From: Eledone cirrhosa
Taxonomy: Eukaryota
Length of the DNA stretch: 64,000 bases
Assembly (NCBI GenBank): GCA_964016885.1
Contig: OZ024756.1
Span: 3,286,001 to 3,350,000, forward strand
Direction: 5' to 3'
In this document: one piece after another, positions 8,751-38,447 of the stretch
Position numbering within the stretch: position 1 is the first letter of the stretch
How the letters are laid out: each line of letters opens with the position of its first letter
Notes under the pieces: model-generated
What the model was told of the DNA's origin: nothing
Databases searched by the model: none
What the model saw: the letters and a program-made list of their open reading frames with translations, nothing else
Position numbers and translations under genes: made by a program

Positions 8751-8975
8751 TAAAATACAATACAGATTAGCGCACCATAATTTGCCTTGATGGCCCTTGA
8801 AATATGTATAATAAAATAAATATGGTTTTATAAATATAGTTTCCATTTGTTAATATATTGTATTTACTCCAATTAAATGTTGAGTGCTTTATATCAGTTA
8901 TAAAAATATTTTAAAGCTTGTTATATCCCAACAAATTAAATATAACCTCTGCATATATATATATATATATATATA

Positions 8976-9190
8976 TAGGAACAAGTAAGACCCCGACGGC
9001 TGAGCTCAAGCCGTTTCGACGGCTAATTTTTTTTTTTTTTTTTTTTTTTTAGTCCAGAATTAGCCGTCGAAATGGCTTGAGCTCAGCCGTCGGGTTCTTA
9101 CTCGTTCCTATTACCCACTCTACTACCCTAAGTATTAAGTACTTTGGTGCGTTATGTTCCACCTGGTCCCTTACCACTTTTCCTTCGTTA
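8976..9190 (+). mobile_element. Family B element with a poly-T loop
   Basis: Inverted arms around a T-run, plus the conserved tail; in (TA)n. Confidence 0.9.
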
Positions 9191-10024
9191 TATATATATA
9201 TATATATATATATATGCACATGCGTAATCATGATATCGTACATATATATATTTATTTGAAATTGTTGACTCACAAGCTGATACACAATATATATATACAT
9301 AGGTATGTACGCGCGTGCGTGTGTGTGTGTAGTTGTGTGAGTGTGTGTGTGGGGAGGGAGGGGGCGTGTAGGGGGGGGGGGGTGGGGGGGGGGGGGGGGG
9401 TAGTACCTGTTATTCTATATCCATATTAATTAGAAATGCGTGAATGCATACATGCATGTCTCTGGTTTACACGAAAATTATACACCTATTTTCAACGCTC
9501 TTTACACAATGTTAATTACGATATATATATACATACAAACATACACACACACACACACACACACACACACACACACACACACACACACACACACACACAC
9601 ACATATATATATATATATATATATATATATATATAAAAACAAATAACGAAACGAAATTAAATTTCGTTTCGTTTGTAACTCACTTTTGTATGACTTAATT
9701 ATATATATATATATATATTTATATATATATATATTTATATATATGTGTGTGTTTATAAATATATATATATATATATATGATGGCTGCTCCCTTGTTATCG
9801 AGTATGGCCATCCATATATATGTATATATATATATATACATACATACATATATTTATTTATATATATATATATACATATATATACAGTATATACATATAC
9901 GTATGTATATATATATATATATATATATATACGTATGTATATATATATATATATATATACATATATATACAGTATATACATATACGTATGTATATATATG
10001 TATATATATATATATATATATATA

Positions 10025-10115
10025 TATATTTATTAAAATAACAGATAGAAGTTGATATATATTTATCCTTATCGAGCCCTCTTTGGATTTTAGTCTTCAA
10101 ATTTATTATTATTAC
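10025..10115. mobile_element. Family E short element; mirror copy at 10480-10570
   Basis: AAATAACAGATAGAAG...CCTTATCGAGCCCTCTTTGGATTTTAGTCTTC; its reverse complement is at 10480-10570. Confidence 0.75.
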
Positions 10116-10119
10116 TATA

Positions 10120-10418
10120 TATATATACCCGAGTGAATGGGCCTACTCTGAGTATATATCTGTAAATTAAAGGTGGAAAACTGGGAGAGGGCACTTGCCT
10201 TGGTGGTCAGGGTCATTGTGGCCTTTTACTGGGCTTTCTCCACAAATGTCCCTCCGAAGTCTCCCCCCTATTGGGGAATTTTTCATTGTTATTTTTTGTT
10301 ACATCCTCTGTTTTTGTTTTTTACACGCAGAAATGCCCATTTGTACCGTCCTGTATTGTCCTGCACTGTCCTTAATGTCTACTTTATGTAAACCCTTGTG
10401 GTTAATAAAGAAATCATT
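10120..10418 (+). mobile_element. LINE 3' end (L1/Tx1-like by architecture)
   Basis: Pyrimidine-rich UTR ending CCCTTGTGGTTAATAAAGAAAT plus a simple-repeat tail; the same terminus occurs at 46680 and 46803. Clade assignment is inference. Confidence 0.5.
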
Positions 10419-10859
10419 ATTACTATATATATATATTACTAATAATAATAATAATAATAATAATAATAATAATAATAATAGTAATAATAATAAATGTGAA
10501 GACTAAAATCCAAAGAGGGCTCGATAAGGATAAATATATATCAACTTCTATCTGTTATTTTAATAAATATATATATATATATATATATATATATATATAT
10601 ATATATATATAGAGAGAGAGAGAGAGAGAGAGAGAGAGAGAGAGAGAGAGAGAGAGAGAGAGAGAGAGAGAGAGCAAAGTAAATAGATATACTTTCTTTC
10701 ATTTCAAGATATCTAGTATTTACATATATACGGAGTTTGAAACGATATATTATTGCATTCCCACATTTTAACATAACATTAGACATAGCTACATAACAAC
10801 ATACTACAGAACACGGTAAGGCTTTTAACTAGATGATGTTTATGGCTGGGTAGACACAT

Positions 10860-11220
10860 ACACAAACACACCTACAGACAGACACACACACACACACACA
10901 CGTACACACACGTACACAAACACAGACACACAGAGACAAACATACAGACAGACACACCACACGTACACACACGTACACAAACACAGACACACAGAGACAA
11001 ACATACAGACAGACACACACACGTACACACACGTACACAAACACAGACACACAGAGACAAACATACAGACACACCCACACACGTACACACACGTACACAA
11101 ACAGGACACACACAGACAGACAAACATACAGACACACACACGTACACAGACACAAACTCAAACACACTCAGACGCGGACAAACAGACAGAGACACACGCA
11201 CGTACACAAACACACACTGA
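10860..11220. repeat. CA-rich higher-order tandem repeat (about 56-60 bp unit)
   Basis: Recurring ACGTACACACACGTACACAAACACAGACACACAGAGACAAACATACAGAC. Confidence 0.85.
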
Positions 11221-11462
11221 CACCACAAACACACACATACACGCTCATGTACACACACACATGTACACACATCGGTAGGTAAATACTCACACGCTCACAT
11301 ATATAAGGAATATATCGTGTAATTTCGTTAATTAATGCATTGAGTATCTGGCAGAGGTCGCCTTCCCGTTCCACCCGGAAAAGCATTCTCACTCCTTCCT
11401 TCCTTATATATGTGTGTGTGTGTGTTTGTGTTTGTGTTTGTGTGTGTGTGTGTTTAGTAAAA

Positions 11463-35608: not shown

Positions 35609-36991
35609 ATATATATATATATATATATATATATATATGCTTTAATATTTAATCTGTACTAATGATTTATATATATATATATATATATATATATATATAT
35701 ATATATATATATATATATATATATATATATATATATAATTGAATGTATATGTGTGTGTATATATGTATATATATATATGTATGTGTGTGTGGATGTGTGT
35801 GTCCTGAATGTATGTGTAGTCAAAGAAATATTTCTCCTTTAGGCACAATGGCAGCGATTTTGTGCAGGTGAAAGTTGATTAATTCCACTGACTTACCTGA
35901 CTAGCACTTTTATTTCATCAACGCAGATATATATATATATATATATATATATATATATATATATATATATATATATATATATATATATATATATATATAC
36001 GTTATTCCGGGTTGAGTCGGAGGTAACCACAGTAAGTAAGGTACTCAATACATTGCAGAGTATAAAAGTTTTAATATAATGAAACAGTTCTAGTCCTGTA
36101 GAATCTCATCTATATTAAAACTTATATATATATATATATATATATATACATATTATATATATATATATATGTATGTATATAAGTATATATATATATATAC
36201 ATATATATATATACATATTATATATATATATATGCTATCAGTATATATATATACGTATTATATATATATATATATATTATATATATATATATATATATGC
36301 ATATAAGTATATCTATATACATTTTATATATATATATATATAAATATATATATATATATATATGCATATAAGTATATATATATACATATATATATATACA
36401 TATTATATATATATATATATATGCATATAAGTATATATATATACATATATATATATATACATATTATATATATATATATATTTGCATATAAGTATATATA
36501 TACATATATATATATACATATATATATGCATATAAGTATATATATATACATCTATATATACATATTATATATATATATATATATATATATATATATATAT
36601 ATATATATATATATATATATATATATATATATACATATATATATGTATATGTATATATATATATATATATATATATATATATATATACATATATATATGT
36701 ATATGTATATATATATATATATATATATATATATATATATATATATCAAACTTAAAACCAAAACTGAATACTAACCAATACTTATTACTAATTTTTACTT
36801 ATTCCTAATTAAACTATTTTTCACTGGGAACAATTTGTCAGCATTTTCTTTTCCTTTTACCAATATATATATATACATATATATATATATATATATATAT
36901 ATATATATATACATATATATATACATATTATATATATATATATACATTTATATATGTATATGTATGTATATATATATATACATATATACAC

Positions 36992-37221
36992 TGTGGAAAA
37001 AGTTTGGTAGAAATATCCAAGGGTAAGAGCACTGAGTGATAGGAGGAATTTAGTATAAATAATTACAACTGTGACATAAACAAGTACTTAAGTTTCGTTA
37101 GTTCCTGCACCCAACCCATCCAGCCTGTCATAAGAACAGATATTATCACAGGCTGAATGAGTTGGGATCTAGAACCTAACGAAACCTAGGTACTTGTTTA
37201 TGTCACTGTTGTAACCAATTA
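36992..37221. mobile_element. Family L fold-back element
   Basis: 37064-37130 and 37147-37214 are inverted; tail on the minus strand extends to 36992. Confidence 0.8.
37148..37197 (+). ncRNA. Hammerhead with 8-nt variant core CTGAATGA (family L)
   Basis: ACAGG CTGAATGA GTTGGG[ATCTAGAA]CCTAAC GAAA CCTAGG T A CTTGT; stem III is the palindrome ACCTAGGT. Confidence 0.7.
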
Positions 37222-37492
37222 TATATATATATATATATATATATATATATATATATATATATATATATATATATATATATATATATATGAAAACAGGGAG
37301 AAAGAGACGATTATGAGGAAGAAACATTTTTTTTTTTCATTTTTCTTGTGTCTCTCTCTCTCTCTTTTTTCTGGGTTAGAAAATGATTATAATGGAATGT
37401 TTTACTTTGTGTGAAGTGTTAAGGTATTAGTTGATTTTATTATATATATATATATATATATATATATATATATATATATATATATATATAAC

Positions 37493-37838
37493 TATTTCTG
37501 CTTTAGGCACAAGGCCAGCAATTCACCAGTACATTACTGGTACTTTATTTTATCGACCCCGTAAGGATGAAAGGCAAAGTTAACCTTGGCGTGATTTGAA
37601 CTCAGACCGTAAAGGGGAGTAACTATGCTGGAAAGCATGGCGTCAGACCCTCTACCGATACTGCCAATTCAACGAAGGAGGGGATGGAACACAACGTACC
37701 AGAGTACTCAATACTTAGGGTAGAGTGGGTAATAGGAAAATGTTTAACCACGACGGCAGAGCTCAAGCCGTTTCCACGGCTATTTCTGAAATAACCGCGA
37801 AACAGCTTGAGCTCTGCCGTCGGGGTCATACATTTTAG
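37493..37838 (-). mobile_element. SINE family A (37493-37669) directly abutting a family B element (37670-37838)
   Basis: ...GATACTGCCAATTC|AACGAAGGAG... with no intervening (TA)n. Confidence 0.85.
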
Positions 37839-37985
37839 TATATATATATATATATATATTAAAAATTGAAATATAGTGAAGTAAATGAATAATTGTGGTT
37901 CCATTACACTCTTATATATTCTACAATGCATTTGTATGTTTGTATGTGTGTGTGGGGGTGGGGACATTATGTAGTTTATGTCTAG

Positions 37986-38046
37986 TGATATCCAATGGAC
38001 TATTCCCATATCTTAAAGCATATATTTTGAATGTTGATGAAAGAAG
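37986..38046 (+). CDS. Candidate exon, (V)ISNGLFPYLKAYILNVDER(R/S)
   Basis: TCTAG acceptor and AAG|GTGTGT donor; F....Y...V.E spacing resembles the cadherin A strand. Confidence 0.3.
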
Positions 38047-38309
38047 GTGTGTTTATTTATATATCTCACCATCACATAAATCAACGAGTTTTATACACAA
38101 TTGGTTTCCTACATATTAATATAATGATAATAATAATAATTTATTATATATATATACATATACGTATATATACATATATATATAATATATATATAAATAT
38201 ATAATATATATATATATATATATTATATATATATATATTATATATATATATTATATATATATATATATATATATATTATATATACATATATATATATATA
38301 TATATGTAT

Positions 38310-38447
38310 AGTAATAATAATAAATTTGATGAGTAAAATCCAAAGAGGGCTCGAAAAGGATAAATAGATGTCAGATATATAAGAACCGTAGAGCAAATAT
38401 TTATTAAAATAACAGATTAAAGTTTAATCTGTTATTTTAATAAATAT
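38310..38447 (-). mobile_element. Family E tail with a short fold-back
   Basis: Links the two E segments; palindrome centred on AGATTAAAGTTTAATCT. Confidence 0.75.

Follow-up and report, generated by a model that had tools for sequence, protein, structure and literature searches.

A bulged hairpin common to Hydra-clade Penelope-like elements and short (TA)n insertions of Eledone cirrhosa lies beside insertion ends

Penelope-like elements (PLEs) of the Hydra clade, whose endonuclease is C-terminal, insert into (TA)n targets and carry a type I hammerhead ribozyme near the 3' end, with a 4-bp stem III and a 0–2 nt loop; they have one open reading frame (ORF) in less than 3 kb (PMC8557442; for every paper cited, our statements refer to the parts of it available to us). 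How PLE tails and inverted repeats form was called undefined in this account (Craig 2021, PMC8557442). Here we analyze a 64,000-nt stretch of the Eledone cirrhosa genome (contig OZ024756.1, positions 3,286,001 to 3,350,000; the window), which contains many short elements inserted in (TA)n as head-to-head pairs. The target of the Hydra clade recurs in these window families, denoted by letters below, some of which show a hammerhead core; elements collected from marine metagenomes match the features listed, whereas the window families are ORF-less remnants. Both groups carry a bulged hairpin. In autonomous elements it can be present twice, as copies m1 and m2 between hammerhead and start codon, and inserted copies end just 5' of one or the other. 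We consider it probable that the hairpin is an RNA signal, recognized by protein, that fixes the start of target-primed reverse transcription in Hydra-clade PLEs, and that the two hairpins together produce the tail and the inverted structure.

A Poseidon PLE cuts its target on both strands and extends each of them; its tail is bounded by two internal start sites of the reverse transcriptase (RT), and a dimer has been modelled (PMC11167929). Our proposal shares with the Poseidon element PAc the extension of both strands, the two internal starts, the AT-rich target and a predicted dimer. In PAc, a start lies in an AC-rich stem-loop inside the ORF, the tail is 30–40 nt long and the available text reports no conserved duplicated motif (PMC11167929), whereas the Hydra-clade signal is a non-coding tandem hairpin with a tail of about 55–85 nt. 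Internal starts were thus located in one element, without a conserved signal (Frangieh 2024, PMC11167929). Retrozymes, which are related to PLE pseudo-long terminal repeats (pLTRs), are likewise short, lack an ORF and have type I hammerheads, and opposite-strand hammerhead pairs 100–700 bp apart have been noted (bioRxiv 10.64898/2026.07.22.740005). Retrozymes are tandem repeats for which the available text mentions no 3' hairpin, whereas the window elements are dispersed long-plus-short palindromes.

The available text of the Hydra-clade account describes neither a hairpin nor a duplication of one, nor any connection with insertion ends (the word 'hairpin' has 0 occurrences; PMC8557442), and the available parts of Arkhipova 2013 (PMC3846280), Cervera 2014 and Li 2026 do not mention the hairpin. 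Our literature search, with Repbase, subscription papers and relevant supplements outside its scope, found no description of the hairpin or of its relation to insertion ends. The element class, its hammerheads, tails and inverted copies are known; the hairpin is a real, newly recognized cis-element of a known clade.

The bulged hairpin in the window

The hairpin has a 4-bp outer stem, P1 (RCTC/GAGY), a bulge on the 3' strand, an inner stem, P2, and a trailing unpaired RCT, giving the formula RCTC-[inner stem-loop]-T(T/C/A)-GAGY-RCT. The bulge is usually 2 nt with T as its first base, and is 3 nt in the L element at 34661 and at 11967. This structure is more specific than the plain RCTC/GAGY stem from which an earlier, sequence-only reading of the window had proposed a motif common to unrelated families. 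A descriptor of the full structure matched 28 sites in the window, compared with a mean of 0.34 and a maximum of 2 in 200 dinucleotide shuffles; thus the motif is enriched over shuffled controls, one of the points on which the earlier proposal could have failed. Twenty-six of the matches lie within the 32,947 unmasked nt. Family B supplies 15 of the 28 and the rest belong to C, D, F, H and a variant of B, apart from a chance match at 54114, outside any element. When sites of the form GAGY[RC]C[CT] were clustered, 8 of 36 clusters passed the full bulged-hairpin test, and all 8 antisense GAGTACT reads of the B palindrome failed it. Families F and H, the single-copy element that starts its hairpin at 11967 and, at 41927, a relative of B are newly seen with the motif; F is a cleaner compensatory (GCTC/GAGC) family than E. 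Minimum free energy (MFE) folding recovered P1 in 9 of 11 window sites. The seven sites quoted earlier all read as stated, including the B copy at 9116-9142, where TAAGTAC replaces TGAGTAC. The hairpins and the insertions that carry them are as follows.

8637..8953, short arm minus and long arm plus: family C head-to-head insertion in (TA)n
8866..8888, plus: C hairpin m1 (ACTC/GAGT, TT bulge, GCT), 65 nt to (TA)n
8422..8480, plus: family C complete minimal type I hammerhead (CTGATGA, stem II, GAAA, short palindromic stem III, stem I)
16929..16951, minus: C hairpin m1 (CAA/TTG inner stem)
33233-33256 minus, 34172-34194 minus, 40573-40596 plus, 5232-5259 plus: more C hairpins
62589-62613, plus: C hairpin with weak P2
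8975..9188, short and long arm: family B insertion, hairpin 9117-9143 degenerate (GAG to AAG)
13631..13657, plus: B hairpin m1 (ACTC, TACT/AGTA, TT, GAGT, ACT)
5593, 16750, 19942, 43195, 47972, 55951, 62807, plus: further B hairpins of identical type
23945, 30828, 33855, 37703, 44450, 49107, 49502, minus: further B hairpins of identical type
62677..62878, both arms: B insertion with read support, short end 62801 followed by (AT)n; the ACTC at 62807 is 5 nt further on
41927..41953, plus: hairpin with TC bulge in a diverged relative of B
25922..25949, minus: K hairpin m1 (ATTC/GAGT with one G-U, CAGT/ATTG, TA bulge)
26048-26054, minus: K hammerhead core
28510..28531, plus: D hairpin m1, P2 degenerate
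36040-36061, minus: D hairpin with intact P2
28429-28435 minus and 58197-58203 plus: D hammerhead cores
34661..34683, plus: L hairpin m1 with CTC/GAG as inner stem and a bulge of 3 nt; (TA)n is 37 nt away
38346..38394, minus: E hairpin m1, GCTC/GAGC with an insert of 38 nt; the short arms of E stop 2-6 nt ahead of GCTC
4338..4366, plus: hairpin of family F with the compensatory pair GCTC/GAGC and an inner stem of 6 bp; repeated at 5034-5062, minus
20292..20319, minus: hairpin of family H with an inner stem of 6 bp and a TC bulge; (TA)n is 45 nt away; relative 42398-42420, plus
11967..11996, plus: single-copy element with hairpin, 3-nt bulge

The distance from the motif to the (TA)n junction is 45–49 nt in 12 of 15 B copies, 49–65 nt in C, and 40 (D), 56 (K), 37 (L), 45 (H) and 69 nt (F) elsewhere. 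These values are close to the 40–65 nt proposed earlier as a position relative to the 3' end. The motif is not positioned from that end; the distance is best read as the m1-to-m2 spacer, the second copy itself never being copied.

Base pairing was examined in 44 distinct copies obtained from 51 anchors placed without regard to pairing. The first P2 pair is Watson-Crick in 39 of 44 (CG 28, TA 10, GC 1) versus a permuted mean of 24.4, and the next two pairs in 26 and 25 of 44 versus 15.2 and 12.3, in permutation statistics that ignore relatedness among copies. Wrong bulge registers pair in only 1, 1 and 5 of 44, and the first bulge base is T in all 44. Among 16 window representatives, the three P2 pairs are formed in 13, 9 and 13. 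MAFFT could not align the variable loop, so structural models were seeded from 7 copies of equal length; the seeded model under-counts T-A closing pairs (12 gaps). With an alignment fitted to the structure, P1 shows two-sided UA/GC swaps in 3 of the 5 modelled pairs, and slid controls are 22–55% paired. A model built from marine elements only, R2, gave 29 window matches at E up to 10, individually weak (best E 0.046), of which 23 coincide with motifs in families B, C, D, E and F; the 6 off motif sites include the top match, which reads 42412 in antisense. We rejected a coding or splice-site interpretation: the motif is in an untranslated region (UTR), its distance to the ATG varies and its pairs covary. 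A repeat family at 58964-59127 and 62313-62470, beginning a few bases past TATA, has a variant hairpin (ATTC/GAAT, tail AGT) that both models pick weakly; at 62313 it lies directly upstream of a C copy.

Autonomous elements and the ends of inserted copies

Metagenomes were scanned with a degenerate RT pattern, independently of the motif, yielding at least 121 loci (L072-L192), at least 80 of them with flanks. Judged by their predicted proteins, these loci belong to the Hydra clade. Sixteen full ORFs of 702–713 amino acids all contain DKT/DKS, YRDDG, the CxCx5C linker, CxxC and CxH, with RW[KR] in 13 and a GIY-like motif in 15; they thus carry the RWK, DKT, CxCx5C, CxxC and CxH motifs of the published clade, several consensi of which also hold the hairpin (PMC8557442). 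Their median pairwise amino acid identity is 49%, and 2 of 253 pairs exceed 80%. Pfam gave no significant match for the two Hydra ORFs tested. Two side observations concern the arrangement of these elements: L080 and L081 are different full-length Hydra-clade elements placed tail-to-tail over one (TA)12, and L077/L078 form a perfect tandem of 2,427 nt.

Between hammerhead and start codon, 33 distinct ORF starts (36 less 3 duplicates) have two hairpins in 17 cases, one in 8 and none in 8 under a strict scan. Some of the hairpin-less loci are truncated by the contig or carry compensatory variants (TCTC/GAGA in L073 and L133, GTTC/GAAC in L100), and several have none. In the 17 two-hairpin loci, m1 and m2 are 55–73 nt apart and m2 lies 7–55 nt, mostly 12–24, before the ATG; the hammerhead GAAA is 52–67 nt from m1 in the 13 of these with a hammerhead. 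The motif occurs within 170 nt of 17 of 18 Hydra 5' hammerheads, compared with 0 of 69 viral hammerhead-like matches, the negative controls coming from a viral hammerhead-descriptor scan (71 apparent chance loci). Viral contigs gave no match to the RT motif or to a Hydra protein; a twin-motif pattern was rejected there as too unspecific, returning at least 120 stretches. Comparison with the pseudo-LTRs of known PLEs, suggested by the sequence-only reading, yielded several cases: the Hydra-1_Ajap consensus has the hairpin twice before the ATG, and in Hydra-2_Amil and Hydra-2_Ajap one copy follows the hammerhead, after which the sequence ends (PMC8557442 File S7). A conserved cis-element linking the families, as that reading had proposed, is thus supported: autonomous Hydra-clade PLEs have the same motif, in two copies, with ends 2–6 nt 5' of each. 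Its further idea of one system holds for the common motif; a single master RT is not required, each marine family having its own ORF.

To locate these ends, the 3' repeat of each marine element was aligned to its own 5' region in 16 loci, of which 12 were informative after 4 contig-edge ends were dropped. The 3' copies stop 2–6 nt before a hairpin in 9 of 12, 3 before m1 and 6 before m2. Of the 12 short arms of B in the window, 11 end 8 nt before ACTC (5–7 nt after allowing for TA microhomology), 4 of 6 E short arms end 2–6 nt before GCTC, and 3 of 4 D short arms end 4–6 nt before the motif. One B end, at 62801 in (AT)n, is heavily used (3,598 reads; 228–272 contigs per run). Defining the short arm as ending -22 to +3 relative to RCTC, we found a long arm paired with a short arm in 30 of 30 two-armed insertions (49 window loci listed); in all of them, as is typical of PLEs, a 5'-truncated copy is inverted head-to-head and only one end has a tail. 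In many B insertions the palindrome centre, where the arms meet, is at nearly one site (around CTGGAC/GTCCAG), for example at 55860-55900 and 49185-49215. This suggests that the master contains a strong hairpin at which both cDNAs come to a halt and anneal to each other.

Nature of the window families

Simple repeats mask 30,024 of the 64,000 nt, and microsatellites swamped a repeat search of the window. Flanks and read ends place the window families in (TA)n, a trait of the Hydra clade. A full type I hammerhead core is present in the sequence of C, D, K and M; E has a degenerate hammerhead, and none was found in the window for F, H or L. In family B the visible part is the GAAA-stem III-cleavage-stem I half; its 5' core (CTGANGA...GAAA) is never seen in the window, so the earlier statement that the motif lies downstream of the ribozyme holds for B only with respect to this 3' half. 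Window copies are truncated or non-autonomous and ORF-less, and tblastn of 23 Hydra ORFs gave one match, at E 0.61. The best reading is that these families are short, (TA)n-inserted, head-to-head remnants of PLEs. Their membership in the Hydra clade we only infer, because the window contains neither an ORF nor a second hairpin.

Other identities were rejected. Non-LTR retrozymes would be tandem repeats with a complete hammerhead in each unit, and the copies are dispersed inverted pairs. Naiad and Chlamys PLEs have an N-terminal endonuclease and no canonical hammerhead, and hammerheads are present here; six motif 9-mers, searched as exact words in the Naiad and Chlamys consensus files, where line breaks may hide matches, gave only 1 and 2 matches in coding-like context. 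Among the best 150 of 492 Rfam matches, only Plastid-psbJ-2 was above threshold, spuriously, from (TA)n and the B palindrome; the others were miRNA-like and microsatellite-driven.

Family M (43839-44069 and 16289-16478) has a Hydra-like hammerhead (core 43912), and its copy at 16289 has a 34-nt terminal inverted repeat in place of long and short arms; it is possibly another PLE clade. Palindromic or hairpin (TA)n insertions in which we detected neither motif nor hammerhead core lie at 28187-28348, 30555-30728, 37054-37210, 16516-16624 and 12491-12739. An abundant family resembling short interspersed elements (2836-3017, 7273-7489, 19269-19442, 27270-27470, 62120-62272 and others) has a central domain that may be Meta-SINE-like. 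A decayed RT fragment of the long interspersed element type (13727-14410; weak RVT_1 match, E 0.021) is interrupted by a nearby B insertion, a unit of about 27 nt forms a tandem array at 53427-54005, and a (TAA)n-tailed repeat end is common to 47413-47492 and positions 306-378 of the marine contig L091 (76% over 80 nt).

A start signal for reverse transcription and its alternatives

We propose that masters carry m1 and m2, about 55–73 nt apart, between hammerhead and ATG, and that the RT-GIY-YIG protein would cut both strands of the (TA)n target. Two cDNAs would then prime from the two strands. One, beginning 2–6 nt 5' of m1, would give a short arm without a hairpin; the other, beginning 2–6 nt 5' of m2, would give the long arm, whose 'tail' would be m1 plus the spacer. 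Both would run upstream through the hammerhead, truncate and be joined into the long-plus-short head-to-head insertions. The hairpin would act at the RNA level, bound by the element's own protein with one protomer per hairpin, and the window families would have masters with m2. The RT recognition raised earlier as possible thus gains an anchor, in that the hairpin marks insertion ends; recognition itself is the conjectural part.

The hairpin's invariant U bulge, ahead of a G-C and an A-U pair, resembles the arginine sandwich of HIV TAR and 7SK SL1, in which a U-led pyrimidine bulge has a Watson-Crick pair before it and G-C then A-U after it (PMC6189040), an arrangement that forms a U:A-U triple (PMC6189040). 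This is an analogy in secondary-structure pattern, and the hairpin differs in having its bulge on the 3' strand and its loop on the other side. A similar sandwich may form at the U bulge; a basic stretch (4–7 R/K in 14 amino acids) precedes W[FY]NPP in 19 of 19 Hydra ORFs examined. A tentative extension, which we hold as a serious possibility short of a favoured one, is that a dimeric, telomerase-related RT binds tandem TAR-like hairpins on one RNA and primes both strands of the cut (TA)n, which would explain both the tail and the inverted repeats.

Several observations weigh against the start-signal proposal. The window contains no ORF for RT and GIY-YIG endonuclease, its families show no nucleotide (blastn) or protein similarity to the marine Hydra loci, and no m2 was seen past any long end in the window or among the listed loose ends. 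Family M has no canonical hairpin despite its hammerhead, Hydra-1_Obim has no clear copy, and the hairpin is degenerate in Hydra-1_Crog and degenerate or weak in Hydra-1_Amil (PMC8557442 File S7). Folding energies are weak, -3 to -11 kcal/mol, P1 position 1 is an A-C mismatch in 3 of 44 copies, and the two remaining sites of the 11 folded, K and the long-loop GCTC...GAGC of E, take other MFE folds. The compensatory form claimed earlier for E is accordingly divided, favoured by its short ends and by the marine-only model, which finds E, and not by its fold. Three of the 12 marine ends are further off (L149 8, L127 11 and L082 21 nt by strict extension, or 3 for L082 by blast), one D end is 12–17 nt off, and C short ends scatter, with register errors from indels. 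TA microhomology could set the exact base at which copies end.

If the hairpin instead acted as DNA, the GIY-YIG endonuclease would recognize it in a cDNA or integration intermediate, cut a few bases away and trim both ends. The identical end-to-motif geometry fits this, a tail arising from endonuclease-mediated resolution has been suggested (Craig 2021, PMC8557442), the Drosophila Penelope tail is needed for endonuclease recognition, as cited by Frangieh 2024 (PMC11167929), and the A-C mismatches would be G-T on the opposite strand. However, G-U pairs on the sense strand are commoner (first P2 pair TG 3 vs CA 1, third GT 6; window P1 GT 2), the only PLE tested has RT start sites at the boundaries of its tail (PMC11167929), and the hairpin that defines the end is absent from the inserted arm. 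We regard trimming of DNA as unlikely. Similarly unfavoured, and if anything a shade less credible, is a mark for RNA cleavage or termination, with RT starting from the resulting 3' ends. Ends are sharply placed just 5' of each copy and the hairpins adjoin a ribozyme, yet the hammerhead cleavage site is far upstream of the short end (52–67 nt between GAAA and m1), Poseidon RT initiates internally and needs no 3' end (PMC11167929), and a single RNA cut before m1 cannot template the long arm of the same insertion.

The two copies might also serve the 5' UTR in promoter function or in the control of translation, as in autoregulation, with ends nearby only through TA microhomology. The 7–55 nt (mostly 12–24) between m2 and ATG, internal promoters in the pLTR of other PLEs and a TA immediately 5' of almost all copies (33 of 34 motifs have one within 10 nt, counted without a null) are consistent with this. 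It leaves the 30 of 30 long-plus-short insertions unexplained, as well as the rare use of other TA sites in AT-rich UTRs, and covariation points to a single-stranded structure rather than a duplex site; we judge UTR control very unlikely. Chance resemblance or plain homology between families might be read from the only about 12 conserved bases, the weak single covariance-model matches in the window (best E 0.046) and the 15 of 28 matches in one family. The 28 versus 0.34 matches, the 0 of 69 in controls and the covariation speak against it, as does the retention of the motif across elements of 40–89% amino acid identity whose flanks are unalignable. These data already refute it, and we give it next to no probability.

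A covarying, duplicated hairpin that is clade-wide and predicts both insertion ends makes the formation of tails and inverted repeats a question testable through a 25-nt element. It is also a marker for classifying the abundant ORF-less palindromic repeats of microsatellite-rich animal genomes; comparison of a stretch of the window with sequencing runs drew 21,000–23,000 contigs per run. The finding bears on how template boundaries are defined in the sister group of telomerase. If the tentative extension with a dimeric RT is true, it would provide a portable start signal of about 25 nt for programmed reverse transcription.

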